A stretch of DNA of 63,266 bases, filler included, from Lophium mytilinum (lineage: Eukaryota), in the NCBI GenBank assembly GCA_010093605.1. It is 14 parts of 4 records of this genome, joined end to end, with 100 filler letters (N's around TTAATTAATTAA, not from the genome) between each part and the next. Parts side by side here need not be neighbours in the genome. Positions count along the whole stretch, not along the records: positions 55,425 to 61,945 come from MU004190.1; 13 more parts are not named here. One strand, written 5' to 3'. Below are positions 34,205 to 61,945 of this stretch, one piece after another. Position 1 is the first letter of the stretch; each line of letters opens with the position of its first letter. The position numbers and the translations under genes were made by a program. The notes beneath the pieces were generated by a model. It was not told the DNA's origin. It saw only the letters and a program-made list of their open reading frames with translations, and did no database searches.

Positions 34205-36416
34205 CTATCTACGCTATTACTTACTAGTGCTATAGCCCCTCTTTACTATACTGCTTCTTAGTATTTACCGGCTTAGTTGCGGGAGAAAGGTATTAGTAAG
34301 TACTCTTACTCTTGCGCGCTTTACTAAAAACTCCACTATATCTTTAACTCTTGGGGTAGCTTTAATCTCTTTAGCGCAACCGCTAAGCTAGTACTACCTT
34401 ATTATCTTTTACGCCTTTATCTTCTAGTCTTCTATATAGAGTATATTATATTAATTCTAGTTAATATAGTTATTAATAAAAAAATAGGTAGAATCTAGGC
34501 TAGAGGTAGCTAGTATAATATATACACTTTAGAGGACTTATAGTAGTAGATAGAATTAATATACTTCTAGCTTTTATTAGCAGCGGCTATTATTAAAAGC
34601 CTAAAAAGCTACCTTTACTAGGCTATAGATATAATATAGCTTCCCGTTATTAATTAGCGCTAGAAGGTAAATAAAAACTCTAGAGTATACTACCTATAGA
34701 GTATCTTTACCCTTTAGAATAGGGTCTATAATAGTTACTATAAATTATAGCTACCTTACTAACCTTCTATTAGTAATACTAACGCGCATTTTTCTATTTT
34801 TAGTATAGTTTAAGCTATACTCTTATACCTATAGATAGTTATATTACTATTCTTAGTTTTACTACTTAGAGTTATACTATAGATTTTCTTTTATAAGGCT
34901 TTCTAGGTCCTTACTAGTACCTAATTACTTCTAATATAAAATACTAGCGTAGAACTTAAGCTAGAGGTAGCTAACCTAGAATAGATTAGGGTTTAATATA
35001 TCTAGACTACTAGGCTTAGTATATTAGCCTTAGATCTTACGCCTCTCTTNNNNNNNNNNNNNNNNNNNNNNNNNNNNNNNNNNNNNNNNNNNNTTAATTA
35101 ATTAANNNNNNNNNNNNNNNNNNNNNNNNNNNNNNNNNNNNNNNNNNNNCCTAAGAATATAGCCTAAAGAGCTATAGTATAGCTAATACTTTAGGTAGTC
35201 TTCTTTATCCGCTATACTTAGTATAAAGCCTAGTAGTAGAGTACTAGATAATATATTTAAGCGCTGTATAGTTCTATCTAGGTTACTAATAGTTAGATAG
35301 ACTAGCTATATACTCTTATTACTATAATATTAGGTAAGCTATATCTTATCTATAGAGAGTAAGATAGGTATTACTATAGCCCCTGCTAGAAGCTTTAACT
35401 AAGTCTACTACTACTAGTTTAATATATATAACTTAGTATATACCTACTAGCCTTCTATATTATAGACTTAAACTAGTATAAATATAAGATAATTATAGAA
35501 AGGGCAGTATCTAATTAGAAATAATATAGCTACTATTATATTAAAGTAGTATACTAGATACTACTCTCTACTTAAGCTTTATTTTTTACTTAGAAAATAT
35601 AGCATCTCTACTATATAGTTAGTATTACTAACGCTATATCTAATTTCCTCTAGTTTACTATTCTATAAATTGCCTAATATAAATATAAGGGAGTTAGAGA
35701 ATATGCTCTTAAGGTAGATATTATTAAATAGTAGGTTAATATTATTCTTAGTATAGCTAATCTACTAAAGCTATAATATAAAAGTATAGTTAAATACTAA
35801 TTAAAATAGATAGAAGGGGGATTAGTCTCTATAATAGAGTAACTAGTTAGTAAGCTCTAATGCCGCCTTTATAGGCGGGGGGAATAGCGGTCCCTAATAA
35901 TACTTATATCTACTATCTAGCATTAGCCTATCTAATAGATGCCCCTGCAGGCATGCCTAATTTAGTAGAGAAATATACTTTCTCTTATAGTAATAATATA
36001 GATAATATTATTAGTTAGCCTTATTAGTGCGGAATATAGAATTTAGTAGCCTCTAGTAGGTTATTATATATTAAGCTTATAGGGCCTCTATTTATAAAAG
36101 GCGGACTCTAGTACTTTTTTAGTTTACTAGAGATATATAGCTCTATTCTATTTATCTTATACTCTATCTTATTATAGAAGTTAGCTAGTAGAGGTAGATT
36201 TACTAGTAGTAATCTAGGCGTTCTAAATAATATTTTATCTATTATCTAAATAACGCGGAGTATATAAAACTAGATTATAGATCTAATAGTTTTAGTATTA
36301 GTAAGTAGGACCCGCTATAGTATTTTAAGGAGCTTTTTATAGCATAGTATATATTTATTTAGGGCGCTAAGTATTTAGAATAACTTATAGTAGTGTCTAT
36401 ATTTAGTAGAAGGTAT
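34205..36416 (-). pseudogene. Plavaka-type transposase with N-terminal C2H2 zinc finger (middle lost in gap 35050-35149)
   Basis: RIP-reverted minus-strand reading: K(C)xH(C)xKxFxxLSALNK(H)xLx(H) at about 36400-36340; (R)VYT(E)Lxxx(DWWW)xT(Q)xKL(P)AGA(T)VIPILLSxDK(TQ)LT...(WP)VYLTI(G)NL at 35450-35279; LLLGFx(P); C-terminal FxNNYI(DWDQ)YN at about 34480-34445. Confidence 0.88.
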
Positions 36417-39400: not shown

Positions 39401-40060
39401 TACCTTCTTAGGTAGCTATAGCTAACTTCTCTTTCTATTCTAAGAATCTTAACTTATTAGCTGCTAATTTAGTAGAGCTTATAACGCTAATTTAAATAAT
39501 AGAGGGGGGCACCTATATATAGAAATTAGCCTTTCTTTCTATATTAACTAACCTAGGTAAGTAGAAGGTAATATTAGATAGAAGTTATTACTAATCTATT
39601 AAGTATTACTAAAAGCTAATAGGTATAGATAAATATTAAGGTAGAGGCTAATTATTACTAATTATTAGGTAGTAGAGTTTTTTAAGCTATATAACTCTTT
39701 ACTTCTATTATATTATAATATAGCCTATTTACTAATTACGCACTTAATTATATACTACTTTAAACTTTACCTTCTATCTAGCCTTTTAATTCTAATTCTT
39801 ATCTACTATTCTTACCTATCTTTTCTTTTTTATTCTTCTTCTCCTCTATCTCTCTCTTCCCTCTCTCTCTTTTTCTTCTCCTCTTTTTCTTATATACTAA
39901 CTTTCTTCTCTATACCTTAGGCTTACCTATACTTACTATATTTCTAGTACCGCTCTATAAGTACTTCTTTAATAGATATTATACCTATTTAAAAGTATAA
40001 CTAAAANNNNNNNNNNATCTACCTTTCTTATACCCTAACTTCTTATTTTATTTACCTAAT

Positions 40061-41762
40061 ATAGCTAAAGAATTAGGTTAATGCACTAGTTACTAATAAC
40101 GCCTTCCTAATAATTAAAATAATAAGGAGTTTAACCCGGATAAATAGTTATTAAGTATAGACTCTAGTTAAGTAGACTATAATAGTAATTTAGAGCTAGA
40201 TAAGCTAGATAACTACTATAGCTGCTAGCCTCCCTATAGTAGCTGCTAATACTCTAGACCTACTTAGAGAAAGGCTATAATACTTCTAGTAGACCTACTA
40301 TATAATATATCTATATAGAGTAAGGTAGTATTTAATTTTACTAAGAACTCTAAAGGCTACTTAAGTTAAATAAATATTATAGCTAGCTTAGGTCTAGCTT
40401 CTAAGGTATAGCACTAAATAGAAGCTAACTTATTTATACTAATAGAGAACTCTAAAGTATATTTATAGGTAAAATATCTCTTATAACTAGGCTAAAATAA
40501 CTATAGTAAGAATAACGCCTACTTAAATATTTAGTTTAAAATATATATACTTTTTATAGATATATAGAGTTATATATTTAAGAAGTCTTTTATATTAGCT
40601 AAATAGAAGTAAGTATATTAGATATTAATCTAGTATAAAGTCTATAAGAAATATAAAATATAGAGTAGTATTATTAAAAGTAATAAGAAGTAGAAGTAGT
40701 TTAAGTTAGCCTTATCTATAAAGTTAGTTATATTAGTAGGCCTTAGCTCTCTAATAAAATCCTTAAATATTACTACCTAAAATACTCTATTTAAGCTCTA
40801 GCTATTATATATAGTCCTTGCTATAATATACTAGCTACTATAGTAGAAAAGTACTAGACGCCTTTTTACTCTTTATCTTATAAGGTCTAGTAGTAAAGGC
40901 CTAGAGCTAGAAGACTATAGCTTTATAAAGTTTCTAGAAGCTATTAATAGAACTTTTATAGACTTTAACCCTCTAAAGTATATTATTATAGTTAATAGAA
41001 CCTAGAAGTTAATAGAGAATAACTTTTATCTAACTATACTATTAGAGGAAATAAAAAGTATACCTAAAGAGATAGTACTTAGTTTTATAGTAAAGGGCCT
41101 TAATATTAAAAAGGTAATATCTAAACTTAAGACTAGATATATATTAATTATTATTAATTATTAAATATTACTACTAACTAATATATAGCTAGGTCTATAC
41201 TTTCTTAAGTTTCCGCCTTCTAGTATCCGCCCGGCTAAGAAACGCCCCCGCTATAGTAAGCCTAAGGCTGCTGCGGCTAAGGGTCTATCTAAACCTACCG
41301 CTGCTAATACTCTAAATAAAATAATTATTAACTTAACTATAAGTCTAGATATATATATAGCTAATATAGATAGAATTAATTCTATAGTAGAGTAGAATAA
41401 AGGAAAGAAGTAGAAATAGCTAGTAGATATAGTAAAAAAAGAGAAAGAAAAAAAAAAGAAAGAGCTAGTAGAAATAGTAAAAGTAGAAAAAGAAAAGAAA
41501 GAGAAAGAAAAGAAGAAGAAAGAGTTAGTAGAGAAAGAGCTAGTAGAGAAAGCGCTAGTAGAGAAAGCGCTAGCAGAAATAGTAAAAGTAGAAAAAGAAA
41601 AAAAAAAGAAAGAGATAAAGAAGAAAGAAATAAAAGAGAGAGAGCTAGTAGATATAGTAATAGCAGAGAAGGCTAAGAAGTAGATAGAATAGAAGAAGAG
41701 AGAGCTAGCTAAAACTATAACTAAAGAGAAAGTAAAGAGGTAGAAATAGCTAGAAAAGATAG
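40061..41762 (+). pseudogene. SNF2-family ATPase gene relic, 5' part (copy 2)
   Basis: Collinear with 57544 to about 59245. Confidence 0.85.
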
Positions 41763-42479
41763 NNNNNNNNNNNNNNNNNNNNNNNNNNNNNNNNNNNNNN
41801 NNNNNNTTAATTAATTAANNNNNNNNNNNNNNNNNNNNNNNNNNNNNNNNNNNNNNNNNNNNTATATCTAAGTTGCTAGAGAAAGTATATATTCCTAGTC
41901 CTAGCTATTATATAAATTAAATAAGAGTATTCTAAAATAGGCGTATAGGCCTATACTTTTATAATATTAGTATCTCTATACTATATATAATTAGCTAAAG
42001 CCCTAAAGCATTATAATAGCGCCCTATAATAACATTAATAATTATAAAAAAAAAAGTACCGCCTAAGTATATATTTAGATAAATAAACCGGGCCGTTATA
42101 TAGTAATAGTTAATAATAGAGTATTATTTATAATTATCTCTAATACTTAAGTGTATAAATATATTAGGCAGTAGTATAAAATATAGAATTTTTAGCCTAA
42201 TACTAAACTATCTAGATCTTACACTAATAACTTAATAAATGCTAGGTTACTATTAATATAAAGGGGCTTTAGTTCCTTCTTAAAAGAAGAGGTAGTATAG
42301 ATATCCTATTAATTACTATAAAATAGTTACTACTAAAGTAGCTAATTTAGTTACGCAGACATAATAAAAGTCTAGTCTTAGCACCCTATTATCTAAACAC
42401 GTATATAAACTAACTCTAACTTTACCTTTTCTACTTCTTCTATACTCTAAGAATTATTAAACTATTATATTATTAGATA

Positions 42480-43230
42480 AATAAGGCTAGTCCCTAATAC
42501 CTAATAATCTTAAGCTAAACTCTAGAAGTAAGCTTATATAGGGCCTTAATATTAGCGCCTATAAATATAATACGCTATATACTATAATAGAGACTAAAAT
42601 AAGGTTAGTAGACCTACTAGGCGGATTTCTCTACTTAAAGATAATTAGGGGGATAGTATAATCTATAATAATAGATATTATAAAGAAGTTTTCTAAAATA
42701 CTTTTACGCGTTCTACTTAAAGAAGAATATAAGTAGATGTTAAAACTCGCATAGTAATATAACTATAATAAGAAAAAATAAGATTATATTAACGCGTCTT
42801 ATTATTCTAATTCTATAGATACTCTACCTACTAAATAAAATAGAACTTTACCGTACTTTAAATGCTACTATAGTTTAGCGCATATAGGAATAAAGTTAAT
42901 ATTAGTAAAGTAGCTAGGTAGTAAGGCCGCCCGTATTATACTAGTATATAAACTTGCACTACCTATACTACTAAAGAGTATACTAGTAATACTAGCCCCT
43001 AAATTTAGTATACTTATTACTAGGTTAAATATAATATTTAGTCTTAATATAGAACGCGAAACTATATATTACTATATTATAGATAATCTTAAGTTTCTAG
43101 TTAAGAATAAGATAGACTAGTATATAGTAATAGTATATTAGAGTTTATTAAAAGAACTAGACTATATTACTCTAATTATTAAGCCTTAGCTAAATAGTAT
43201 ATTAAATATATATAATAATTTTAATTAATA
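42480..43230 (+). pseudogene. Unidentified ORF relic in the arm downstream of SNF2; boundaries approximate
   Basis: One frame (...LNISAYKYNTLYTIIETKIRLVDLLGGFLY...) has noticeably fewer stops than the other two + frames; no motif recognised. Confidence 0.35.
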
Positions 43231-46200
43231 TAGCTAATATAGATAGATAATACCCCTGCATCTATCTACTCTAGCTAGTACTATACTATTCTTCTACCTA
43301 TACCTATATTAGCCTCTACTAGTTATAAACGCCTGCATAATAAGATAAATAAGTAAGAGATTAAAGCTATAGAAAAAGTTAAAAAGAATATAAGAGTTAT
43401 ATAAGAGATAAGAGTATAGAACTATAAAAGATAGAGAACTTAGATAGTATAAAAGTCTATATACCTAGCTAACCTAATTTATAATTAGACTATTCTATAG
43501 CCTACCTTACTAAGAGAACTAGACTAGAACTATACTACTTTAAGGCGGGGCCTTATTATAACCTTATACTATTTTACTAGACTAGAATATAGATAGCTTA
43601 ATATCCTTATATATAGGCAGTATAGAGTTATCTAAACTATAGCTATTATTAGAACTAGAAGTATAGCTATATAGCTAAATATTCTAACTAGGTATATAGA
43701 TTCTATAGGGGGGGGAATTTACTACTAGTAGACTACCCTTCTATTCTTCTATCTAGAGATTTCTCTACTATAGAGGAGTACCCTATAATATAGTATATAA
43801 CTACTTATAGCGTAGTAACTAATAGAAAGCTAGAATTATAGAAAGAAGGCCTAAATAGTAGTAAAGAGAGTGTTTTAGGCTAAGAAAGAGAAGAATATAA
43901 TAGCTTAAGGTTATATAATTTAGTTAGTAAAGATAGAGGCGTTTATTATAGATAATATAGAAAAGGGATATATACTATAGCTAGAGGAGATAGCTAGTAG
44001 GTTATTTACGCCTAAGTAGGTTACCTAACTAGAAATAAAGTTAGTAATAAGGGGATAGCTACGCGTTATAATATTAATACCTCTATTAGGGCCTCTAACT
44101 TAGCTAGCTATCTATCTAATAATATAGAATGTAAAGTCTATAATCTCTTAACTAACTACTATTCTAATAGCGTAGAAGATGCTATCTAGAAATAATAGCA
44201 GGAGGTAGTAGCGCGCATATAGTAATTAGTAGAAGTTAATATAAGTATATAAGTATAAGCTCTAGTCTAAGGTAATATAATAGAAGAGGTAATTATATAG
44301 ATAGAAGTATTTAATTATATAGAATAATAGGGCTTTATTAAGAGGGGGATAAAGAAAAGGTATATAACTAGCTAAAAATACTAAGTTAACGCATATAGAC
44401 TGCATCTAGCTAGCTCTATTATATTCTATTATAATAAACGCGTAACTTACTCCCTCTTTATTTTCTTCTCTCTATACTACTTAATTATAATCTACTTTAC
44501 TTCTCTTTATAGTTATTATTCTTATACTCTACCTTAAGAAATAAAATGTTTTTTTACTATACGCCCCCTATCTATTATTTAGTAAGGCTTAATATTACCT
44601 ACTTAAATATAGTAAAAGGTAATATAAAACTATCTTTCTCTACCCTAAATAGGGACTTACTATATAACTTAAATATACTATATTATATACCCTATCTATA
44701 GTATATATTAATATATATATAGCTAACGCGTATAACTATAGATAGTAAAGAAGTAAAAATGCGCTGCCTTAAAACTAATTAATATAGTAACGCGCCTAGC
44801 TCTCTTAACTCTAATGCCTACTAACTAATAATAAATATATAGAACTTAATAAGTAAAAGAGAATATACTACTAGAATATTCTAAGATNNNNNNNNNNNNN
44901 NNNNNNNNNNNNNNNNNNNNNNNNNNNNNNNTTAATTAATTAANNNNNNNNNNNNNNNNNNNNNNNNNNNNNNNNNNNNNNNNNNNNAATTAGTAAATAG
45001 AGTATAAGTAGGCTCTATCTTACGCTTAGTATTATCTTTCTATTTTATAATATATATACTATAATTAGATGCATTCTAAATTACTATATAGTCTACTATC
45101 TAACGCGTAATATATATATCGCGTACTATTCCCTAGCCTAGATATCTAGCGCACGCGTTACTAGCTCTAATAGTCTACTAGGATATTAAAATTATTAAGG
45201 TTAGTAATAGTTATACAATTCTTAGAAATATATATAGGCATTACTATTTATATAATATATAAAGTTTATAATATATATAAAGTTACTATAGACTATAAAG
45301 CCCTAGTAGAGATAGTAAGAAGAAATAACTAGATATACTAGTATAACTTTAAATTTTCTACTATATATAATAATTATGTATTTAGTATATAAGGCTCTAT
45401 CTATATTATTATCTATCTATCTATAACCTAGGCGGATTAGGCAGTTTTAGAAGGTTAGATAGAGGAGGTAGATAGCTATATTTATAAGGACTATAAAGTA
45501 GTTATTAACTATAATAATTACCTATAATACTAGATTATCTATAATTAAGAATTATCTACGTAGCCTGCGTATAAATTTTATATAAGAAGTAGGTAAACTT
45601 TTATAGAGTAGTATAAAGCCCGCGGAGTAGTAAAATATATAGTCTTCTAGAAGATTATATAAGTAACTAGTATTCTCCGCGCGTTTCTTAATTTAGAAAT
45701 TTCTAATATATATTAGTACCTAATACTATACTTTTAAGTATCTAGTATTTTATTTATTCTTCTACTACTATATATTTTACCTTTATAGTTAGTACTTTAG
45801 CATGCCTATTTATACTATTCTATATTTAAATTATTTTACTATATTATTTTATACTAAGGGAGCTAATATAGTTATAGATAGGTGTATCTCTATCTATACC
45901 TAAGAAGCGGCTAGTAAAAGAGAAGAATAGTAGACTACTTAATATAAAGATATTAGACCTAGTTATTTAGTTAATAGCCCTATAGGCTTCTATTCTAGCC
46001 GCTATTTTATCTTAGACTATAGCGGCACTTTAATAGGTATTTATTAGTATATACTACTTAGTAGAGTAGCCGTAATATATATATAAGCTAATTTTATACT
46101 TAAAGTCTATTTATATATAGAAGTTAGTATTACTAGATTAAAAAATAGGCGTATACCTATTCTTATTCTCTATACCGCGTTTTCTCTTTCTAGTAAGAGA

Positions 46201-47672
46201 TAAGGTACGGCTGGACAGCTAAAATAATATAGTATTACTATCTTAGAATATTCTAGTAGTATATTCTCTTTTACTTATTAAGTTCTATATATTTATTATT
46301 AGTTAGTAGGCGTTAAAGTTAAGAAAGCTAGGCGCGTTACTATATTAATTAGTTTTAAGGCAGCATATTTTTACTTCTTTACTATTTATAGTTATACGCG
46401 TTAGCTATATATATATTAATATATACTATAGATAGGGTATATAGTATAGTATATTTAAGTTATATAGTAAGTTTCTATTTAGAGTAGAGAGAGATAGTTC
46501 TATATTACCTTTTACTATATTTAAGTAGATAATATTAAGCCTTACTAAATAATAAATAGGGGGCGTATAGTAAAAGAATATTCTATTTCTTAAGGTAGAG
46601 TATAAAAATAATAACTATAAAGGGAAGTAAAGTAGATTATAATTAAGTAGTATAAAGAGAAGAAAATAAAAGAGAAGTAAGTTGCGCATTTATTATAATA
46701 GAATATAATAGAGCTAGCTAGATATAGTCTATATATATTAACTTAGCATCTTTAGCTAGTTATATACCTCTTCTCTATCCCCCCCTTAATAAAGCCCTAT
46801 TATTCTATATAATTAAATACTTCTATCTATATAATTACCTCTTCTATTATATTACCTTAGACTAGAGCTTATATTTATATACTTATATTAACTTCTACTA
46901 ATTACTATACATGCGCTACTACCTCCCGCTATTATTTCTAGATAGTATCTCCTACGCTATTAAAATAGTAGTTAGTTAAGAGATTATAGACTTTATATTC
47001 TATATTATTAGATAGATAGCTAGCTAAGTTAAAGGCTCTAATAGAGGTATTAATATTATAATGCGCAGCTATCCTCTTATTACTAACTTTATCTCTAGTT
47101 AGGCAACCTACTTAGCCGTAAATAACTTACTAGCTATCTTCTCTAGCTATAGTATATATCCCTCTTCTATATTATCTATAATAAACGCCTCTATTTTTAC
47201 TAACTAAATTACATAACTTTAAGCTATTATATTCTTCTCTCTTTTAGCCTAAAACACTCTCTTTACTACTATTTAGGCCTTCTTTCTATAATTCTAGCCC
47301 TCTATTAGTTACTACGCTATAAGTAGTTATATACTATATTATAGGGTACTTCTCTATAGTAGAGAGGTCTCTAAATAGAAAAATAGAAAAGTAGTCTACT
47401 AGTAGTAAATTTCCCCCCTATAGAATTTATATACCTAGTTAAAATATTTAGCTATATAGCTATATTTCTAGTTTTAATAATAGCTATAGTTTAGATAACT
47501 CTATACTACCTATATATAGAGATATTAAGCTATTTATATTCTAGTCTAGTAAGATAGTATAAGGTTATAATANNNNNNNNNNNNNNNNNNNNNNNNNNNN
47601 NNNNNNNNNNNNNNNNTTAATTAATTAANNNNNNNNNNNNNNNNNNNNNNNNNNNNNNNNNNNNNNNNNNNN

Positions 47673-50600
47673 AATAAATATAACTATATAAGCTTTTTAG
47701 TTAGTATAGTCTTTATAATTATCTAGTATTAATTATATTAGTTTATTAGATAATAATTACTAATTATAGATAGAGATAGGTAGTAACTTATAATATAGAT
47801 AACTAAATTAACTATAGGCTCCTTACTAATAATTAGTATCTTCTTTTTCTTAGCTTAAATATATTAAACTATACTTCTAATCTTCTTTAGCTTTCCTAAA
47901 TTAGCTAGTAGGTTAGTATACTATTTAGTAAGGGTACTCTTTAAGTCTATATAATCTATCTAGCCTATATTTTTAATATCTTCTAGAGTAAAGATTAAAT
48001 TACTTATTAAGCTAAGCTCTTTCTATTATATCTTTAACTTAGCTAGCCTAGAAATTAATATAAAAATCTAGGGTAGCCTTTTCTTACCTAAGCCTATTAG
48101 GAAGGCGCCTAGGCTAAAGAAAGGTAGTAGCTTATTAATTACTACTTTATACCTTAGCTATTCTTTATACTTTTTTTTAAGGTCTATATATCTCTCTCTA
48201 ATAACTATATAGTACTTCTTAATAAAGGGTTTAAAGTAGTTAGGTATACTAACTATTACCTGCTATATAATATAGAGCGGTATATCCCCTAAAAGAAGGC
48301 TATTTAGACTAAGGCTTATTAGTATTCTATAGATACTTATAGCTATAATTATATCTAATACTCTCTAGAAACGCCTAGATAATTTAGAATTATTCTATAG
48401 TTACTACTCTTTCTCTATTTTTAAAGTATAGTAGTAACCTCTAGCCTTTATAAGGTCTTCTTAATTAATATACTAGAGGGTAGAGCCTTAATAAAGAATA
48501 TTAAACTTATCCCCTTTATCTATATTCTTTTTCTCTAACTTCTTATCTAGAAGAGTATTATCTAGATTATCTTTAATATTAGTATTTAAGTTAGTTAGAT
48601 CTACTATCTAAGTTAGCGTCTATAAACCTCTATATAGTATAACTATTAGATATAATAGAGTTTTAGGGCCGTAGAGAAAAAAAGTTCTACTATAGAATAA
48701 GCCTCTAGAGTAGCTATATAGATTAGCAGCCTTATTAAACTCTTTTAAGTTCTAGCCCTAATAAACCTAATTAAGCGCACAGTTAATATTTACCTATTTA
48801 TATATAGTTAGGCGGAATATATATTAATACTATATAGACTTAATATAGCTAAAAGCTATAATATATAGAGATATATTATTAAATTCTAGGTAGAACTTAT
48901 TAAAAAAAACAGCCCTATATATATATATAGGGGTTACTTTATTACTATATAATAGGTTATAGAATATTATAAAAATCTCTAGTAAGTTTAAATTCTTATT
49001 ATATTTTTTATTAAAGGTCTCTACACTTATAATAATAAGGTAGGTTTTTACTCTTAAATTTAGCTTATACTATACCCGACTATTTATTTCTTAGTAGATA
49101 GGCCTAAGGTTCTTCTAGTCTTTAGAAGTAAGATTACTCTTTATAATACTTCTATATATACGCTAGATATAAAGTCTTCTACTAGAAACCTTAAAATTCT
49201 TATTCTTATATTTAATATCTAGCTAGTATTTTACCTTCTTATAGGTCTAATTTAGTAGACTCTTCTTAGTAAGCTAAATAATATAGCCTTTAATACTACT
49301 AGAATATAGAGTATTAGTACTAGCCTCTCTAGTATAAGTAGTAAATACTATTAATATTTATAGAGTTTTTTCTATTCTAGAGAAGTTTATAAAAATTAGC
49401 CTATATACTCTACTAGTAAGACCTTAAATAATACTATATATTCCGGCTATCTAGTATAGAGCTATATATATCTTTAGGTTAGTAGTTATTTCTAGTAGCT
49501 TAAAAGTTATATTACTAGAAAAATTTCTATATATTAGAGGTAAACTAAAAAACTATAGTATCTTTTTAAATACTACTACTAAAATATTCTTTATAGAGCT
49601 TAATATTAGGGCTATTATAGTAGTAATATTAATAGTATCTACCTTCTTTATATTAGCTATAATTATCTTATTTATATTTATAGAGGGTCTAGTCTTACTA
49701 AAACTATATATATTAAATTTAAGTGTGGCTATAATATTAATACTACTAATTACTATATCCCCCGCGACTTAAATATTACTAGAAATAGTTTAGCCGCTCT
49801 CTATAGTAACTATAAGCGCATAAAGTTATTTTTAGGTAGTTAAATACTAAGTAGTTCTAGGCCTAAGTACTTTAAGCTACTATATAATCTTATTATAGAT
49901 AATACTAGGCTAAATAGAATTATATATTAACTTAGTATATAGCTAGATAATATTAAGTATCTATTAGATTAGTTATACTTTCTTTTCTATTTATAGCTTC
50001 TATATCTTCTTTTCTACTAGTAGTTTCTACTTTCTTTATTTCTCTTACTCCGCTATCTTTTCTAGCTATTTCTACCTCTTTACTTTCTCTTTAGTTATAG
50101 TTTTAGCTAGCTCTCTCTTCTTCTATTCTATCTACTTCTTAGCCTTCTCTGCTATTACTATATCTACTAGCTCTCTCTCTTTTATTTCTTTCTTCTTTAT
50201 CTCTTTCTTTTTTTTTTCTTTTTCTACTTTTACTATTTCTGCTAGCGCTTTCTCTACTAGCGCTTTCTCTACTAGCTCTTTCTCTACTAACTCTTTCTTC
50301 TTCTTTTCTTTCTCTTTCTTTTCTTTTTCTACTTTTACTATTTCTACTAGCTCTTTCTTCTTTTTTTCTTTCTCTTTTTTTACTATATCTACTAGCTATT
50401 TCTACTTCTTTCCTTTATTCTACTCTACTATAGAATTAACTCTATCTATATTAGCTATATATATATCTAGACTTATAATTAAGTTAATAATTATTTTATC
50501 TAGAGTATTAGCGGCGGTAGGTTTAAATAGACCCTTAGCCGCAGCAGCCTTAGGCTTACTATAGCGGGGGCGTTTCTTAGCCGGGCGGATACTAGAAGGC

Positions 50601-50750
50601 GGAAACTTAAGAAAGTATAGACCTAGCTATATATTAGTTAGTAGTAATATTTAATAATTAATAATAATTAATATATATCTAGTCTTAAGTTTAGATATTA
50701 CCTTTTTAATATTAAGGCCCTTTACTATAAAACTAAGTACTATCTCTTTA
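47673..50750 (-). pseudogene. SNF2-family ATPase gene relic, internal part (copy 3)
   Basis: Direct repeat of about 308-3381. Confidence 0.85.
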
Positions 50751-52339
50751 NNNNNNNNNNNNNNNNNNNNNNNNNNNNNNNNNNNNNNNNNNNNTTAATT
50801 AATTAANNNNNNNNNNNNNNNNNNNNNNNNNNNNNNNNNNNNNNNNNNNNATAATTAAGTATATAATTAGTAAATAGGCTATATTATAATATAATAGAAG
50901 TAAAGAGTTATATAGCTTAAAAAACTCTACTATCTAATAATTAGTAATAATTAGCCTCTATTTTAATATTTATCTATACCTATTAGCTTTTAGTAATACT
51001 TAATAGATTAGTAATAACTTCTATCTAATATTATCTTCTACTTGCCTAGATTAGTTAATATAGGGAGAAAGACTAATTTCTATATATAGGTGCCCCCCTT
51101 TATTATTTAAGTTAGCGTTATAAGCTCTACTAAATTAGCAGCTAATAGGTTAAGATTCTTAGAATAGAAAGAGAAGTTAGCTATAGCTATCTAAGAAGGT
51201 ACTATACTACTTATTATTACCTAAGCTACTACGCGCCTCTTTACTTTTAATAGTAGCTTATTATCTACTAAAGTTACACCCTATAAGCTAATAGGTAGTA
51301 GTACTAATTTATATATCTTCTTACTATCTACCCTTTTTATAAGTATTACTAATTTAGCTTATACTATAGAATAGCTTACTTATTTACTTTCTTTCTTACT
51401 AAATAAGTACTTTTACCCTCTAGCCCCTCTACTAGCGCGCATACTACCTCTATATAGAGAACGCCTACTTTAATCTATCTAGAAAAACTAGTATTATCTA
51501 CCTATATATTTATTATACTTCTTATCTACTTACTTACTTCTACTAGTGCTAGGCTAACTATAGTCTATATTTAACTAGCCTATATATCTCTCTCTTTTAT
51601 AGCCCTTTACTACTCTAAATAGCGCTTTCTAGAGGCTCTACTTAGTAGTTTCCGCTCTCTCTCTATCTTTTATAGCTTGCGCTCTAATAACTAGGTTAGT
51701 ACGCTTCTTCTTGCGGATTTAGCTTTTCTAGAAGTAGTAGAATTATATAGTTATATTTTATAGGCTATACCTCTAGAATATATATAGATTAGTAATACTT
51801 AGGTTTACCTATTATAGTATACTATAAGGCTAACTTTTAAGTATAGCTTAAAATTAGTAGAGGTAGATTAAAAGTAGATAAAAAAGATAATAGGGTAATA
51901 CTTAAATATTTAGGGAACTAATTACTAACTACTATATAGTACCTATATTCTACTAGGTAATTTAGCTATTAAATGCGCGTTTAAATAAAAGCCTCTTAAT
52001 ATAACTAATATCTTACTAGATATAATAGTACTTAGTTCTAATCTAATTATTAGCCTAATATTATACTAGCCTTAACTCTAACCCTCTAGAAGGTAGCTAC
52101 TACTATAGTAACTTATACCTTCTATAATAATAGCTAATATACTACTAGCGTATATTAGACTAAAGCTCTAAACTCTTTTAATAACCTACTTACTATTAAA
52201 TTATAGCCTCTTCTCTAACTCTAACTATTTTATTTAGAATATAAGCATATCTACCTATACTAATACTAACTAACTATTTAAATATATTAGGCCTAATAGT
52301 AATATATAGTCTAGAATAGTAAAGGCTAATATACTTTAG

Positions 52340-53493
52340 ATAGAGACTAAGTAGTAAGTCTAGCTTATACGCGGTAGTATCTAGACTTAATAGACTAATT
52401 TATATATAGAAAGGTTACTACTAAGCCCTTTTTCTAACTCTACTTTAAAAGTACTAACTAATTCTTTAATCTTCTATATAGTATACGCAAAATTTTAGTT
52501 ATAAGAAATAAATTAAATAAACTATAGGGAGCAGAACTTAAGAAAATACTTACTACTTAAATAACTATAATATAGTCTACTAATAGGTTTAAGTCTATAG
52601 TAACCTTTAAAGAGAAATATAGTAACCTTTAAAAGTGCTAGAAATATACTAAATACTAACTTAATTCTATAGTAAATATTCTAATCTTAAAAGGCTAAAT
52701 AGGGGTAATAAATATCTATACCCTTACTATTATTCTAATAACTATACCTAATACTACCTATATAGTAAAGCTTACTAAGACACTATAAGACTAAGAGCTA
52801 CTAAAGTAAGTTATAATTAAGTACTAATTTAGGATCTCTACTTAAATGCGCCCTAGCCTACCTACTAATATACCGGGTATATAATAGTATACTTACTTTT
52901 ATTATTTTAATCTAGATATATATAAACTATAAAAAGTAGCCTCTATAAATAAGCCTAAGTACTACTATAACCTTACTATTAAGGGCACTCTTAAGGTTCT
53001 TAAGATTCTAGAAAAATACCTACCGCCCTTATTTAGAGGCTAGATAATTAGGTATAATACTAACGCAACCGCTAGTAAAGAGCTAGTAGAGGTCTCTATC
53101 TTTCTTACTATTATTCTAACCTAACTAGCTACCCCTACTAAGCTAGTAGAACTCTATAAGAGGTTAATATAGAATGCTATTTACTATATAAAAGTTTAAG
53201 ATAAGTATAAGTCTTATATTAGTCTATCTTAGAATTTATATTTTAAATAGTATATATCTATTATCTTATATATAATCTATAGAGAATTAGCTAATAGAAG
53301 TCTAGCCTTATAAATATAGCTTATATTTATAGTTCTAGTATTTAGATTACTATATACTAATAAGCTATACTAGATTATATTCTATAGCTAAGTAGACTCT
53401 CTACTTAATACTATCTATACTAATAAGAAGTTTAAGGCTATAATAATAGATAGTTTTACCTAGATATACCTAGTTATATCTATACTAGATACT
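52340..53493 (+). pseudogene. Unidentified intron-containing ORF relic upstream of and co-oriented with the transposase; start approximate
   Basis: Protein-like frame (...TIKGTLKVLKILEKYLPPLFRG...) with a frame-preserving GT...CTAAC...TAG intron at 52622-52672; runs into a gap. Confidence 0.45.
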
Positions 53494-53593: not shown

Positions 53594-55324
53594 TAAAGAC
53601 CTAGAGACTAAATATACTATAAGGTTTTACTACTTAACTATTATTTAGATTAAATAGTAATATAATAATAAAGAGCATTTAAAACTTCTACTAAATAAAG
53701 CGCTATATAATATAGAGGCTATAGAGCTTAATATAGAGTTATATATATATTCTATAAATAACTTTACCTAGAAATACCTCTATACTAATATCTACTAGAT
53801 AATAATAATAGATATTCTATACTAACTATTTATAGGCGTTATTTATAACCTTATTAAATAGGTTTAGCTACTAGTAGCAGAGGTCTATACCCTAGTAATT
53901 AGAAGAAAAGATGCCCGTGTCCTAATAGAAAATAAGAGTAGCTTAACCTAGCTAGATAAGTAATTTAAGAATATACCGCCTTTTCTAGGTCTATCTATAT
54001 TTAATAAGAAGAATTTTAGTAAACTTTTATAGTATACTAGCTCTAAATAAAAGTCTATAGCCCGCTAGCTTATAGTAGTAGTAGCACTACTACTAGAAGT
54101 AAAAGCGCTAAACGCGCTCTAGTTTATCTATATAATGCTTAATTTTACTATTCTAGCATAGTATAAAATATATAATAAGGCTATACTAGAGTATATAGAG
54201 CTAGTAATAGCTTAAATTAATATATATAAGTTAGAATTTAGAATATTTAGACCTAGAAATAAGAATAGAAACTATACCTTCTACTACCTAAAATTCTATA
54301 TTATGCAGCACTATATTAATTTTATATAGAAATTTAGCGCCATTAATAGCTATAATACTAGCTTAAATAGCGAAGTAAAATACTAATATCTAGTTAAATT
54401 ATAGTATTAGTTAATAAACTATAAGGACTTTCTACTCTAGATCTACTAATTAAACTAAAGACTTATAAATAACTAGGCTATAAATAATATACTAAACTAC
54501 TAATATTACTATTCTTAACTAGCAGTAATAAGAGATATACTAATGCAATAGACAACAGTATTAGGAAGTATTAATATCTTAAACTTTAAATAGCCTAGAT
54601 ATAATAATTCCTATAAAGGCTAAATAGTATACTATTTAAAAGTAAGTATTAAGTATATAGCTAATATAAGCTAGAAGCTAGACTTTATAGCCGCCGCCGC
54701 TATATTTATTTAAGAAGAGAGGCGTAAGATCTAAGGCTAATATACTAAGCCTAGTAGCCTAGATATATTAAACCCTAATCTATTCTAGGTTAGCTACCTC
54801 TAGCTTAAGTTCCACGCTAGTATTTTATATTAGAAGTAATTAGGTACTAGTAAGAACCTAGAAAGCCTTATAAAAGAAAATCTATAGTATAACTCTAAGT
54901 AGTAAAACTAAAAATAGTAATATAACTATCTATAGGTATAAGAGTATAGCTTAGACTATACTAAAAATAGAAAAACACGCGTTAGTATTACTAATAGAAG
55001 GTTAATAGAGTAGCTATAATTTATAGTAACTATTATAGACTCTATTTTAAAAAGTAAAGATACTCTATAGATAGCATACTCTAGAGTTTTTATTTACTTT
55101 CTAGCGCTAATTAATAATAGAAAGCTATATTATATTTATAGCCTAGTAGAGGTAGCTTTTTAGGCTTTTAATAATAGCTACTACTAATAAAAGCTAGAAG
55201 TATATTAATTCTATTTACTACTATAAGTTCTCTAAAGTATATATATTATACTAGCTACCTCTAGCCTAGACTCTACCTATTTTTTTATTAATAACTATAT
55301 TAACTAGAATTAATATAATATACT
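53594..55324 (+). pseudogene. Plavaka-type transposase, C-terminal half (copy 3)
   Basis: DIL(HQ)LFIGVI ~53810; LDK(R)FKNxPPF(P)GL ~53950; L(D)FTILA(Q)Y ~54140; (P)KF(H)xMQHYxxFI(R)KF(G)AI(DG)Y ~54290-54355; NNYI(DWDQ)YN ~55290. Confidence 0.88.
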
Positions 55325-57543
55325 NNNNNNNNNNNNNNNNNNNNNNNNNNNNNNNNNNNNNNNNNNNNTTAATTAATTAANNNNNNNNNNNNNNNNNNNN
55401 NNNNNNNNNNNNNNNNNNNNNNNNGGCTTAGTAGTAACCTCTCTATATATAGATTAGTCTATTAAGTCTAGGTACTACCGCATATAAGCTAGACTTACTA
55501 CTTAGTCTCTATCTAAAGTATATTAGCCTTTACTATTCTAGACTATATATTACTATTAGGCCTAATATATTTAAATAGTTAGTTAGTATTAGTATAAATA
55601 GATACGCTTATATTCTAAATAAAATAGTTAGGGTTAGAGAAGAGGCTATAATTTAATAGTAAGTAGATTATTAAAAGAGTTTAGAGCTTTAGTCTAATAT
55701 ACGCTAGTAGTATATTAGCTATTATTATAGAAGGCGTAAGTTACTATAGTAGTAGCTATCTTCTAGAGGGTTAGAGTTAAGGCCGGTATAATATTAGGCT
55801 AATAATTAGATTAGAACTAAGTACTATTATATTTAGTAAGATATTAGTTATATTAAGAGGCTTTTATTTAAACGCGCATTTAATAGCTAAATTATCTAGT
55901 AGAATATAGGTACTATATAGTAGTTAATTAGTCCCCTAAATATTTAAGTATTACCCTATTATCTTTCTTATTTACTTCTAATCTATCTCTACTAATTTTA
56001 AGCTATACTTAAGGGTTAGCCTTATAGTATACTATAATAGATAAACCTAAGCATTACTAATCTATATATATTCTAGAGGTATAGCCTATAAAATATAACT
56101 ATATAATTCTACTACTTCTAGAAAGGCTAAATCCGCAAGAAAGAGCGCGCTAACCTAGTTATTAGAGCGCAAGCTATAAGAGATAGAAAGAGAGTAGAAA
56201 CTACTAAGTAGAGCCTCTAGAAAGCGCTACTTAGAGTAGTAGAGGGCTATAAAAGAGAGAGATATATAGGCTAGTTAAATATAGACTATAATTAGCCTAG
56301 CGCTAGTAAAGGTAAGTAAGTAGATAAGAAGTATAATAAATATATAGATAGGTAATACTAGTCTTTCTAGATAGATTAAAGTAGGCGTTCTCTATATAAA
56401 GGCGGTATACGCGCTAGTAGAGGGGCTAGAGGGTAAAAGTACTTATTTAGTAAGGGAGAAAGTAGGTAAGTAAGCTATTCTATAGTATAAGCTAAATTAG
56501 TAATACCTATAAAAAGGGTAAATAGTAAAAAGATATATAAATTAGTACTACTATCTACTAGCTTATAGGGCGCAACTTTAGTAGATAATAAGCTACTATT
56601 AGAGGTAGAGAGGCGCGTAGTAGCTTAGGCAATAATAAGTAGTATAGTACCTTCTTAGGTAGCTATAGCTAACTTTTCTTTCTATTCTAAGAACCTTAAC
56701 CTATTAGCTACTAATCTAGTAGAGCTTATAATACTAACTTAAATAATAGAGGAGGGCACCTATATATAGAAATTAGCCTTCCTTTCTATATTAACTAATC
56801 TAGGTAAGTAGAAGGTAATATTAGGTAGAAGTTATTACTAATCTATTAAGTATTACTAAAAGCTAATAGATATAGATAAATATTAAGGTAAAGGCTAATT
56901 ATTACTAATTATTAAATAGTAGAGTTTTTTAAGCTATATAACTCTTTACTTCTATTATATTATAATATAGCCCGTTTACTAATTATATACTTAATTATGC
57001 GCTACTTTAAACTTTACCTTCTATCTAGCCTTTTAATTCTAATTCTTATCTACTATTCTTACCTATCTTCTCTTTCTTATCCTCCTCCTCCTCTATCTCT
57101 CTCTTTTCTCTCTCTTTTCTTCTTCTCCTTTCTTTCTTATATACTAACTTTCTTTTCTATACTTTAGACTTACCTACGCTTACTATATTTCTAGTACCGC
57201 TCTATAAGTACTTCTTTAATAGATATTATACCTATTTAAAAGTATAACTAAGAGTAGCTACTTCTATTACTAGTATATGCAGATTTATATATCTTCTACT
57301 ATAGTCGCCTTATTTTTTAACGCGCGTAATTCTAAAGTTAATTATACTATAAGTAGCGTCTACTATTATAACTTTATAGGTAAGTAACTACCTTACTTAT
57401 TACTTACTATTACTATTTATCTAATATTATTAGCCTTCCGCCCGCTCTTACCTATATTACTATATAATACTATTCTATCTACTAACTCTACTCTCTTCTA
57501 TCTATCTTTCTTATACTCTAACTTTTTATCTTATTTACCCGAC

Positions 57544-60500
57544 ATGGCTAAAGGATTAGGTTAACGCACTAGTTACTAATAACGCCTCCCCGATAATTAA
57601 AATAATAAGAAGTTTAACCTAGATAAATAGTTATTAAGTATAGACTCTAGTTAAGTAAACTATAATAGTAATTTAGAGCTAGATAAGCTAGATAACTACT
57701 ATAGCTGCTAGCCTTTTTATAGTAGCTACTAATACTCTAGACCTGCTTAGAGAAAGACTATAATATTTCTAGTAGACCTACTATATAATATATCTATATA
57801 GAGTAAAGTAGTATTTAATTTTACTAAGAACTCTAAAGGCTACTTAAGTTAAATAAATATTATAGCTAGCTTAGGTCTAGCTTCTAAGGTATAGTACTAG
57901 ATAGAAGCTAACTTATTTATACTAATAGAGAACTCTAAAGTATACCTATAGGTAAAATATCTTTTATAACTAGGCTAAAATAACTATAGTAAGAATAATA
58001 TCTACTTAAATACTTAGTCTAAAATATATACGCTTTTTATAGATATATAGAGTTATATATTTAAAAAGTCTTCTATATTAGCTAAGTAGAAGTAAGTATA
58101 TTAAATATTAATCTAGTATAAAGTCTATAAGAAATATAAGATGCGGGGTAGTATTATTAAAAGTAATAAAAAGTAGAAGTAGTTTAAGTTAGCCTTATCT
58201 ATAAAGTTAGTTATATTAGTAGGCCTTAGCTCTCTAATAAAATCCCTAGATATTACTACCTAAAATGCCCTATTTAAGCCCTAGCTATTACACGCAGTCC
58301 TTACTATAATATACTAGCTACTATAGTAAAAAAGCACTAGATGCCTTTTTACTTTCTATTTTATAAGGTCTAGTAGTAAAGGCCTAGAGCTAGAAAACTA
58401 TAGCTTTATAAAGTTTCTAGAAGCTATTAATAGAACTTTTATAAACTTTAACCCTCTAGAGCATATTATTATAGTTAATAGAACCTAGAAGTTAATAGAG
58501 AATAATTTCTATCTAACTATACTATTAGAGGAAATAAAGAGTATATCTAAAAAGATAGTACTTAGTTTTATAGTAAAGGGCCTTAATATTAAAAAGGTAA
58601 TATTTAAACTTAAAACTAGATATATATTAATTATTATTAATTATTAAATATTACTACTAACTAATATATAGCTAGGTCTATACTTTCTTAAGTTTCCGCC
58701 CTCTAGTATCCGCCCGGCTAAGAAACGCCCCCGCTGTAGTAAGCCTAAGGCTGCCGCGGCTAAGGGTCTATTTAAATCTACTACCGCTAATACTCTAGAT
58801 AAAATAATTATTAACTTAACTATAAGTCTAGATATATACGCAGCTAATATAGATAGAGTTAATTCTACTATAGAGTAGAATAAAGAGGAGAAGTAGAAAT
58901 AGCTAGTAGATATAGTAAAAGAAGAGAAAGAAAAAAAGAAGAAAGAGCTAGTAGAAATAGCAAAAGTAGAGAGAGAAAAGAAAGAGAAAGAGAAAAAAAA
59001 GAAAGAGTTAGTAGAGAAAGAGCTGGCGGAGAAAGTGCTAGTAGAGAAAGCGCTAGTAGAAATAGTAAAAGTAGAGAAAGAAAGAAAGAAAAAAGAGATA
59101 AAGAAGAAAGAGATAAAGAAGAGAGAGCTAGTAGATATAGTAATAGCGGAGAAGGCTAAAAAGTAAATAGAATAGAAGAAGAGAGAGCTAGCTAAGACTA
59201 TAACTAAAGAGAAAGTAAAGAGATAGAAATAGCTAGAAGAAATAGTAGAGTAAGAGGAATAAAGAAAGTAGAAACTACTAGTAGAGAAGAAGGTATAAAA
59301 GCTATAAATAGAGAAGAAAGTATAACTAATCTAATAGATACTTAATATTATCTAGCTATATACTAAGTTAATATATAATTCTATTTAGCCTAGTATTATC
59401 TATAATAAGGTTATATAGTAGCTTAAGGCACTTAGGCCTAGAACTACTTAGTATTTAACTACCTAAAAATAACTTTATGCGCTTATAGTTACTATAGAGA
59501 GTAGCTAGACTATTTCTAGTAATATCTAAGTTGCGGGGGATATAGTAATTAGTAGTATTAATATTATAGCTACGCTTAAATTTAATATATATAGTCTTAG
59601 TAAGACTAGACCCTCTATAAATATAAATAAGATAATTATAGCTAACGCGGAGAAGATAGATACTATTAATATTACTACTATAATAGCCCTAATATTAAGC
59701 TCTATAAAGAATATCTTAGTAGTAGCATTTAAGAAGATACTATAGTTTTTTAGTTTACCTCTAATATATAGGAATTTTTCTAGTAATATAACTATTAAGC
59801 TACTAGAAATAACTACTAACCTAAAGATGCATGCGGCCCTATACTAGGTAGCCGGGATATATAGTATTATTTAAGGTCTTACTAGTAGAGCGCGTAGGCT
59901 AATTCTTATAGACCTTTCTAGAATAGAAAAAACTCTATAAATATTAATAGTATTTACTACTTATACTAGAAAGGCTAGTACTAATACTCTATATTCTAGT
60001 AGCGTTAAAGGCTATATTATTTAGCTTACTAAGAAGAGTCTACTAAATTAGACCTATAAGAAGGTAAAATACTAGCTAGATATTAAATATAAGAATAAGA
60101 ATTTTAAGGTCTCTAGTAGAAAACTTTATATCTAGTGTATATATAGAAGTATTATAGAGGGTAACCTTACTTCTAAAGACTAGAAGAACCTTAGGCCTAT
60201 CTACTAAGAAATAAATAGTTAGGTGTAGTATAAGCTAAATCTAAAAGTAAAAACCTACCTTATTATTATAAGCGCGGAGACCTTTAATAAAAAATATAAT
60301 AAGAATTTAAACTTACTAGAGACCTTTATAATATTCTATAACCTATTATATAGTAATAAAGTAACCCCTATATATATATATAGGGCCGTTTTTTTTAATA
60401 AGTTCTATCTAGAATTTAATAATATATTTCTATATATTATAGCTTTTAGCTATATTAAGTCTATATAGTATTAGTATATATTCCGCCTAACTATATATAA

Positions 60501-61945
60501 ATAGGTAAATATTAACTATGCGCTTAATTAGGTTTATTAGGGCTAGAACTTAGAAGAGTTTAATAAGGCTGCTAATCTATATAGCTGCCCCGGAGGCTTA
60601 TTCTATAGTAGAACTTCTTTTCTCCGCGGCTCTAAAACTCTATTATATTTAATAGTTATGCTATATAGAGGTTTATAGATACTAACTTAAATAGTAGATC
60701 TAACTAACTTAGATACTAATATTAAAGATAATCTAGATAACACTCTTCTAGATAAGGAGTTAGAGGAAGAGAATATAGATAAAGGGGATAAGTTTAATAT
60801 TTTTTATTAAGGCTCTACCCTCCGGCGTATTAATTAAGGAGACCTTATAGGGGCTAGAGGTTACTACCGCGCCTTAAAAATAGAGAAAAAGCGGCAACTA
60901 TAGAATAATTCTAAATTATCTAGGCGTCTCTAGAGAGTATTAGATATAATTACAGCTATAAGTATCTATAGAATGCTAATAAGCCTTAGCCTAGATAGCC
61001 TTCTTTTAGGGGATATACTACTCTATATTATATAGTAGGTAATAGTTAGTATACTTAACTACTTTAAACCCTTTATTAAGAAGTACTATATAGTTATTAG
61101 AAAGAAATACGTAGACCTTAAAGAAGAGTATAAAGAATAGCTAAGGTATAGAGTAGTAATTAATAAGCCGCCGCCTTTCTTTAGCCTAGGCGCCTTTCTA
61201 ATAGGCTTAGATAAGAGGAGGCTGCCCTAGATTTTTATATTAATTCCTAGGCTAGCTAAGTTAAAGATATAATAGGAAAAGCTTAGCTTAATAAGTAATT
61301 TAACTTTTACTCTAGAAGATATTAAAAATGCGGGCTAGATAGATTATATAGACTTAAAGAGTACCCTTACTAAATAGTATACTAATCTACTAGCTAATTT
61401 AGAGAAGCTAAAGAAGATTAGAAGTATAGTTTAATATATTTAAGCTAAGAAGAAGAAGATACTAATTATCGGCGAGGAGCCTATAGTTAATTTAGTTATC
61501 TATATTATAAGTTACTACCTATCTCTATCTATAATTAGTAATTATTATCTAATAAACTAATATAATTAACTCTAGATAATTATAAAGACTATACTAACTA
61601 AAAAGCTTATATAATTATATTTATTGCTAATAGTTAAGTAACGGAAGCAATTTAATACTAGCTTTAAGCGTAATTAAGATAATCTAGTAGCTATTAATAT
61701 TCTAGTTGTAAACTAGAAGACTAGAGAAGTAGAAGGCTCTAACTTTACTTTTTAATGCACGTGCATAATAGTTATAGAGCTATAAACTATATCTAGCCTT
61801 AAAATATAAATTATATCTAGAGTGTAGTAAAAGAACTAGAGGTCTAATAGAATATATAGTATTATTCTTGCCTATATAGGGGGTAATAACCTAGTAGATG
61901 CGCTAGCTTAGTTTTATATAGTTAATAATAATAAGTTTATATATA
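57544..61945 (+). pseudogene. SNF2-family (SF2) ATPase gene relic, best-preserved copy, >=1400 codons, two probable introns, 3' end in gap
   Basis: Intact ATG at 57544 and one frame throughout. (P)Y(Q)VAG 59839; motif I LIL(A)DL(PG)x(G)KTL(Q) 59899-59940; motif II VFF(DE)F(H) 60388-60408; motif III-like LYL(T)V(TP) 60643-60663; EGSN 61732; motif VI (Q)IxSRVx(R)KN(Q) 61807-61839. Probable introns 58597-58671 and 61507-61575. Confidence 0.8.
58880..59330 (+). repeat. A/G-rich low-complexity tract encoding a Lys/Glu-rich coiled coil in the SNF2 relic
   Basis: EKELVE/EKKEKE-type repeats; same tract at 2600-3050 (-), 41395-41762 (+) and 49970-50420 (-). Confidence 0.8.

Follow-up and report, generated by a model that had tools for sequence, protein, structure and literature searches.

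Genes struck by repeat-induced point mutation (RIP) can vanish from all standard searches, and AT-rich fungal blocks are usually dismissed as unclassifiable. We describe here a reading frame at 58330-61944, on the plus strand of a 63,266-nucleotide stretch of Lophium mytilinum DNA (assembly GCA_010093605.1) that we call the window and to which all results refer. The frame lies on a repeat present in several copies, all of them heavily altered by RIP. Judged from its sequence, it is now dead and probably once encoded a DNA-dependent ATPase of the Swi2/Snf2 type (superfamily 2): when RIP is modelled explicitly, under matched controls, a probable motor gene of SNF2 type emerges where neither Pfam nor a comparison with 1.84 billion proteins detects anything.

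A formerly coding frame on a degraded repeat

Between 57001 and 61944 the frame of base 57001 (frame 0) contains 112 stops, against 225 and 243 in the other two plus-strand frames. All segments of 58330-61944 show significant three-base periodicity (p from 7e-3 to 1e-17), which was not detected in 57544-58329 (p = 0.41), further upstream or in the contig beyond the 3′ spacer. Because coding periodicity is confined to 58330-61944, the relic frame is placed there (Table 1), and one frame of this interval was formerly coding. A first-pass annotation of this DNA had begun the gene at 57544, where an in-frame ATG does exist, but the aperiodic sequence that follows it does not bear this start out. 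The same annotation had stated that the open reading frame (ORF) track misses the gene, and the plus-strand ORFs listed there are indeed all of 91 amino acids or fewer. Its basic RPAKKRPR patch is also present, and may have targeted the intact protein to the nucleus. The region that it described as a coiled coil is a charged five-residue repeat, the underlying DNA periods being multiples of 15 bases.

Self-comparison of the window reveals four partial copies of the repeat, A to D, of which D is the copy under study (Table 1), and an extra short piece of the repeat's upstream part at 14455-15166. Pairwise identity among the four copies is 92-94%. Every copy terminates at a spacer, the window edge or an insertion, and the repeat unit measures at least 6.5-7.2 kb. 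Some 2.9 kb of upstream sequence, 5′ of the reading frame and without recognisable domains, is common to the copies; the three plus-strand frames of 55425-57403, the upstream part of copy D, gave no Pfam match. The gene had been reported as present four times. Four copies of the repeat are found, but only A and D span the entire motor region, copy C being without block V-VI and copy B holding, of the reading frame, the N-terminal part alone.

Differences between the copies are overwhelmingly of the RIP type. Of the 659 columns that vary when all four copies are aligned, 648 are C/T or G/A, and the RIP indices are 1.87 for TpA/ApT and 0.107 for (CpA+TpG)/(ApC+GpT). The 75 stops of the relic frame comprise 46 TAG, 29 TAA and no TGA. 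Nine codon columns are polymorphic between stop and sense; the sense codon is CGG in five and CAA or CAG in three, and the ninth (58501, AAT versus TAA) is read as an alignment-edge artefact. Since eight of these nine columns keep such a codon in another copy, the frame-0 stops are RIP products that derive from CGG, CAA and CAG. As the first-pass annotation had proposed, a G/C-preferring consensus was built from the four copies, but it recovers little: GC content rises only to 31%, and the frame stops in 59329-61944 drop from 59 to 56. CpA sites are mutated in all copies, and the four copies are unable to undo the damage because most sites are mutated in every one of them. All copies in the window are pseudogenes with no present function.

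Table 1. Positions of the repeat copies, of the relic frame with its motif blocks, and of the neighbouring transposase fragment (window coordinates).
Feature	Position	Strand	Description
Copy A	1-5832	-	Self-comparison; full motor region at 2-2602; truncated by the start of the window
Copy B	37536-41762	+	Self-comparison; upstream sequence and N-terminal third only, up to the charged repeat
Copy C	47673-53069	-	Self-comparison; without block V-VI; spacer at 47573-47672
Copy D (copy under study)	55425-61945	+	Self-comparison; record MU004190.1
Relic frame	58330-61944	+	1205 codons with 75 in-frame TAG/TAA stops; 3′ end open, cut by the spacer at 61946
Basic patch RPAKKRPR (resembling a nuclear localisation signal)	58711-58734	+	Translation; locally G+C-rich, little-mutated stretch
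K/E-rich charged region	58877-59330	+	Purine-rich tandem repeats with periods of 15, 45, 60, 75 and 105 bases (Tandem Repeats Finder)
Q block	59836-59859	+	A-L-Y-stop-V-A-G-I against profile ..YQ..G.; score reached by 3/300 shuffles
Motif I / Walker A	59902-59943	+	I-L-I-D-L-S-R-I-E-K-T-L-stop-I against lLADEMGLGKT.Q.; 17.6 bits; 0/300 shuffles
Candidate motif Ia (W..E block)	60016-60090	+	In the right place; score reached by 174/300 shuffles; 11.4-bit sub-block in the chain
Candidate motif II, weak	60397-60408	+	N-K-F-Y, RIP-compatible with D-E-x-H; 5-column core ranks 3rd of 868, 14-column block 16th of 859
Best motif III candidate (profile LtGTP..N)	60487	+	L-T-I-Y-K-stop-V-N; ranks 60th of 864
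Block IV	61399-61479	+	L-E-K-L-K-K-I-R-S-I-V-stop-Y-I-stop-A-K-K-K-K-I-L-I against s.Kl..l...l.e......kvlvFsqf; 13/300 shuffles
Candidate motif V	61693-61734	+	I-N-I-L-V-V-N-stop-K-T-R-E-V-E; contributes 11.5 bits to the chain; 15th of 857 as an ungapped block
Block V-VI	61762-61842	+	I-E-L-stop-T-I-S-S-L-K-I-stop-I-I-S-R-V-stop-stop-K-N-stop against Vi..d..Wnpa...Qa.dRahRiGq; 13.7 bits; 1/300 shuffles
Plavaka transposase fragment	~35219-35587	-	PF18759; E = 1.9e-8; 34.3 bits (cut-off 26.3); profile positions 35-162 of 325

A RIP-aware comparison with the SNF2 profile

For the comparison with known motors we used a purpose-written model of RIP, in which each codon receives a posterior over ancestral amino acids, any T being possibly a former C and any A a former G (RIP weights of 0.92 at TpA and 0.25 elsewhere; codon priors from background amino-acid frequencies). 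These posteriors were scored against the columns of a profile hidden Markov model, the best colinear chain of ungapped blocks being taken at a jump cost of 8 bits, and codon shuffles served as the null. The SNF2 profile was made from 72 prokaryotic SNF2 cores picked by an exact DNA pattern of motif I, and all six of the cores sampled carried PF00176 together with PF00271. The main test covered 59329-61944 (872 codons); 58877-59330 was left out of it because the charged repeat gave a spurious 12-bit block and inflated the scores of all profiles.

Copy D scores 69.8 bits in this test, compared with a shuffle mean of 37.5 (standard deviation 4.6, maximum 54.0). The observed score is reached by none of 2000 shuffles, and Gumbel extrapolation gives p ~ 6e-5, whereas the reversed SNF2 profile obtains 35.9 bits (z ~ 0). 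Expressed as z, the match reaches 7.4-7.7 for copy D, 7.6-7.7 for copy A and 4.6 for copy C, which has no last blocks; with five choices of the RIP rate it lies within 7.2-9.9, and it is 2.6 for the raw translation, in which RIP is not modelled. With G/C restored at 71 polymorphic sites the score climbs from 69.8 to 73.2, and with the A/T alleles it is 69.1. When the window was scanned in all six frames (600 tiles, with the charged repeat), the top six tiles (66.5-71.8) were copies D and C in this very frame, and copy A came seventh (60.1); the best unrelated tile reaches 56.6, against a median of 40.1 and a 95th percentile of 50.7. Two variants of the procedure were dropped, namely sharper profiles with less entropy weighting, for which z fell to 1.1-4.5, and gapped local alignment, which found the Q and motif I segment only.

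Motif by motif

Each block of the profile was scored in the same RIP-aware manner at its best position anywhere in the 872 codons, with 300 shuffles per block (Table 1); the labels Q, I, Ia and II-VI follow superfamily-2 nomenclature, and the consensus strings are those of the prokaryotic profile. Blocks Q, I, IV and V-VI are each significant and stand in the correct order, and the distance from Q to I is 22 codons compared with 21 profile columns. The earlier description of the motifs as occurring in order in one frame is thus upheld by shuffles for Q, I and V-VI, to which block IV can be added, but not for II, III and V, which like Ia are not significant alone. At the motif III candidate the G, T and P of the profile are not RIP-compatible at their places.

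The codons of motif I are RIP-compatible with G-x-G-K-T, and the string reads D-L-S-R-I-E-K-T in copy D, with N-S-S-R in copy A and N-F-S-R in copy C. The first-pass annotation had rendered it as ADLPG. The underlying string is there in copies D, A and C, but the codon after the aspartate is CTT in copy D, TCT in copy A and TTT in copy C, and from this comparison the G/C-preferring residue is P and not L. For motif VI it had given SRVxRKNQ, and the underlying S-R-V-stop-stop-K-N-stop is found in copy D. In block IV the part corresponding to s.Kl has G in copy C and E in copy D. Because they come from one to three RIP-damaged copies, these deviating motif readings are unfit to carry a phylogenetic claim such as that of the first-pass annotation, which had proposed an element-specific SNF2 clade in place of a recently captured host gene.

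From motif I to block IV the relic runs for ~500 codons where the profile has 270 columns, and a large insert between the two motor lobes is therefore likely. Large inter-lobe inserts are a trait of Rad5/Rad16- and Ino80-type enzymes. Inspection of 60500-61390 by eye revealed no conspicuous RING-like pattern of cysteines.

Within the relic frame, an imperfect palindrome occupies 60351-60400, just 5′ of the DExH candidate, with 26-base arms that are 73% complementary and centred on a TATATATA run. No family of 40-base palindromes or hairpins of this sort was seen in 55425-61945.

SNF2 compared with other helicase families

Nine further helicase-family profiles were built as for SNF2, the panel being prokaryotic throughout and loci of two unpublished genomes being left out. 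SNF2 is the sole profile to stand out, with a z of 7.4 in copy D and 7.6 in copy A. The others, in the same order of copies, are DEAD-box (3.1 and 1.5), HsdR (3.0 and 2.7), DinG-like (2.2 and 1.0), Lhr (2.0 and 1.7; a weak control, since its profile covers the second lobe and later domains only), HrpA (0.4 and 1.1), RecQ (0.2 and 0.8), XPB (-0.4 and 0.1), RecG (-0.7 and -0.9) and Mfd (-1.2 and 0.6). Over all runs the nine range from -1.2 to 3.3, and 20 reversed-profile decoys from -1.2 to 1.9. When the most probable de-RIP translation of three copies was given to hhalign, SNF2 obtained P = 0.0015 and six other families 0.1-0.3; the raw translation gave P = 0.17-0.84 for all seven. The proposal of a divergent SNF2-family ATPase hidden by RIP, from the first-pass annotation, therefore stands to the extent that SNF2 is the best of ten RIP-aware profiles and is favoured by hhalign, but no curated tool confirms it.

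Simulated RIP provides a scale for these values. Held-out bacterial SNF2 genes retain an own-family z of 54-92, while cross-family matches within superfamily 2 amount to 2.6-9 (2.6-8.0 for DEAD-box and RecQ genes against the SNF2 profile). Escherichia coli RapA, a divergent SNF2 protein that lies outside the profile, gives 13-18.5 against SNF2 and -1.2 to 8.4 against the other families. The RapA simulation shows the same pattern as the relic, on a similar scale, and argues for a divergent member of the family as the source of the signal.

Evidence against the assignment and competing explanations

Several observations weigh against identifying the relic as SNF2, beginning with the standard searches, for which translations were used with stops read as X. 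Frame 0 of copy D and three frames of copy A matched no Pfam family at E <= 1, and neither Helicase_C (PF00271) nor SNF2-rel_dom (PF00176) gave a Pfam match above its gathering score. A profile of copies D, A and C found no match at E <= 0.001 among 1.84 billion protein representatives (HMMER) and none at E <= 10 among PDB sequences, and a word-indexed protein search returned none of 7998 candidates of near lengths and none of 8000 of shorter lengths. With our own SNF2 profile, hmmsearch on the tiled de-RIP translation was not significant (E = 1.2-1.6; only three of 561 tiles had E < 10, all of them from copies A and D), nor was it on the whole-frame de-RIP translation. By usual standards no SNF2 gene is seen here. 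The test that does find one has weaknesses of its own. The scoring scheme is the analyst's, and the reference profile is prokaryotic and selected on motif I, the comparison containing no eukaryotic SNF2 sequences. First runs over 58330-61944, with the charged repeat, gave z = 4.2-5.7, and reversed profiles there reached 2.2-3.0; the nominal p-values are further weakened because the jump cost and the region were fixed once first results had been seen. On its own, a z of ~7.5 is no more than a cross-family echo would give, since simulated cross-family values cover the same range. Ski2/Hel308, RIG-I-like, viral NS3-like and SF1 Pif1 helicases lie outside the panel, and motifs II, III and V add to this side of the balance.

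Several of these points would suit a relic of some superfamily-2 helicase other than SNF2, with the SNF2 profile catching shared motor motifs, an explanation that we hold to be improbable. The observed 7.4-7.7 falls within the simulated cross-family span, the motif VI string is RIP-compatible with the generic form Q..GR..R, motifs II and III are unsupported, and the relic's true family might be one of the Ski2-like, RIG-I-like or SF1 groups that the panel does not contain. Against this, all nine other profiles remain at or below 3.3, and RecQ, the usual helicase of fungal repeats, reaches only 0.2-0.8. Moreover, in the simulations a cross-family z of 8 accompanies an own-family z above 50, the mark of a well-preserved sequence to which Pfam would give a name, and Pfam names none. 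The Q block at profile spacing and block IV are also unmatched by the other profiles. For these reasons, and given the RapA pattern, we regard SNF2 as probably the relic's own family.

Still less probable, in our estimation a very unlikely account, is an old frame of some other kind whose helicase resemblance arose from chance and from the analyst's freedom under RIP reversal (reading T as C and A as G): the empty standard searches, the adjustment of scoring scheme and region during the work and the limitation of individual significance to four blocks would agree with it, but the controls had equal freedom and no codon shuffle or reversed decoy reached the score, comparable scores are absent from the other frames and regions of the window, the four blocks are ordered with the Q-to-I spacing of the profile, and hhalign, an independent tool, places SNF2 first by about two orders of magnitude.

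If the SNF2 assignment is right, the intact protein would have carried a basic patch for nuclear targeting and a region of charged pentapeptide repeats, and after these an SNF2 motor of two lobes with a large insert between them. Such a motor would be expected to track along double-stranded DNA at the expense of ATP and to loosen protein-DNA contacts, as SNF2 enzymes do. Its repeated state exposed the gene to RIP, and its copies in the window are now pseudogenes.

Arrangement of the copies and the rest of the window

The window is AT-rich overall (GC content 24-37% in 2-kb windows) and is made of short contigs joined by 13 artificial spacers (44 N, TTAATTAATTAA and 44 N), with one further gap of 10 N at 40007-40016. 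Contig order, orientation and gap sizes in the scaffold should not be trusted.

The homology of copy A breaks off at 5832 and resumes at 14455-15166, the junctions overlapping by ~29 bases in the coordinates of copy D, and ~8.6 kb of other RIP-type sequence (5833-14454) seems to be inserted in this copy. Over 698 bases (41065-41762 and 50053-50750) copies B and C share 99.1% identity, compared with 93.7% in their upstream parts. They form inverted arms at this place, and 43554-44887 likewise matches 47572-46240 in inverted orientation. Either a recent gene conversion or a late inverted duplication could account for this near-identity, as could an error of assembly. A 610-base piece occurs at 34440-35049 and again, inverted and with 95% identity, at 54715-55324. 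Each of its copies touches a contig end on one side, the former adjoining the contig with the Plavaka fragment (see below) and the latter sitting between the upstream ends of copies C and D and adjoining the contig of copy D.

Elsewhere, 18000-29000 has a GC content of 33-37%, compared with 24-31% in the rest of the window; the SNF2 scan is blank here, and the region is probably a different, less mutated repeat. Another repeat family is represented by an inverted pair of 824 bases at 15267-16090 and 31044-31867 (94.8% identity).

Origin of the repeat

How the gene came to be multiplied is a separate question, for which we considered two origins. The repeat may be an amplified block of host genes, like X3X3R8 of Stagonospora nodorum, rather than transposon cargo, and we put this forward as a tentative possibility. 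The stretch of ~500 codons from motif I to block IV is long, as in Rad5/Rad16-type enzymes, the ~2.9 kb of shared upstream sequence gives no transposase signal, and no terminal inverted repeats or target-site duplications are visible in copies that all end at a spacer, the window edge or an insertion. A precedent exists in the RIP-degraded repeat with Rad5/SNF2-like helicases described in the available part of PMC3017866. On the other hand, Pfam detected no Rad6-like or other ubiquitin-conjugating (UBC) domain, nor any other domain, in the shared parts, and neither Pfam nor the SNF2 scan found a UBC gene or a second helicase there, although RIP may hide them; a RING-like pattern did not emerge by eye from the inter-lobe region; and the contig next to copy B contains a fragment of a Plavaka transposase.

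This fragment (Table 1) is the only Pfam match in the scanned parts of the window. It raises the prospect that the repeat was a large Plavaka-type (CACTA/EnSpm-like) DNA transposon of an ascomycete with an SNF2-type chromatin motor as an accessory gene, which we consider unlikely. Were it so, the motor might have opened chromatin for transposition or resisted heterochromatic silencing. In scaffold coordinates the fragment lies ~5.3 kb from the start of the copy B frame, with two spacers between them (35050-35149 and 37436-37535) and contig orientation insecure, and its contig (35150-37435) is single-copy in the window. Pfam searches gave no match in six frames of 37536-40006 and 41863-44887, on the plus strand of 53594-55324 beside copy D, or on the minus strand of 33998-35049. 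The SNF2 relic may be linked to a Plavaka element, though the window cannot show such a connection.

The two origins differ in what they would mean. Should the repeat have been a Plavaka element with this cargo, a chromatin motor would join the few accessory genes through which transposons may counteract silencing by the host, as a kind of cargo not described in the literature searched. Should it have been an amplified host block, it would be one more case of the S. nodorum type.

Comparison with known systems

Compared with Swi2/Snf2 enzymes (PF00176 with PF00271), the relic shares a colinear match of Q, motif I, block IV and block V-VI to the prokaryotic profile, which is the best of the ten families. 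It departs from them after the motif I aspartate, where it reads P and then S or P (G/C-preferring) in place of the E-M of the profile, and in its ~500 codons where the profile has 270 columns between motif I and block IV. It also differs in being dead, in giving no Pfam match and in leaving motifs II, III and V unsupported alone.

Telomere-linked RecQ helicase repeats offer a second comparison, an example being X26 of S. nodorum, a RecQ-bearing subtelomeric repeat according to the part of PMC3017866 available. They too are helicase genes multiplied in a repeat and degraded by RIP. The relic, however, has a RecQ z of only 0.2-0.8, and the window contains no telomere repeats (none at up to three mismatches in three units).

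Large Plavaka elements with cargo are known from mushrooms and red algae, and a Plavaka fragment lies near copy B. In the accessible text of Kojima 2025 (PMC12730594), Plavaka families of mushrooms carry TET/JBP cargo and SNF2 is unmentioned; a preprint on red algae (10.1101/2025.02.11.637652), as far as its available portion goes, describes giant Plavaka elements with three accessory genes, none of them SNF2, and calls transposon accessory genes rare. SNF2 is thus not named as cargo in these portions, and the linkage here crosses two artificial spacers. Among the texts searched (supplements outside the scope), the portions available join Plavaka and SNF2 only in the red-alga preprint, where SNF2 appears in an unrelated context. 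In the part of PMC10799480 at hand, SNF2_N is listed among the domains of host-transposon fusion genes and not as transposon cargo.

The closest parallel is X3X3R8 of S. nodorum (Hane and Oliver 2010, PMC3017866), a RIP-degraded repeat which, in the available part of that paper, combines helicase genes of Rad5/SNF2-like type with a Rad6-like gene and unknown ORFs and is interpreted as an endogenous gene cluster that was amplified. Both are multi-copy, RIP-degraded fungal repeats in which an SNF2-like helicase is the main recognisable content and is seen only after in-silico reversal of RIP. They differ, on a comparison by description only, in that the X3X3R8 helicase is named Rad5-like and is joined by a Rad6-like ubiquitin-conjugating enzyme gene, whereas the Lophium repeat shows no UBC gene and has a Plavaka fragment nearby. 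A relic of this kind is already described in at least one fungus, S. nodorum, and with similar cases in print the present one is a modest find.

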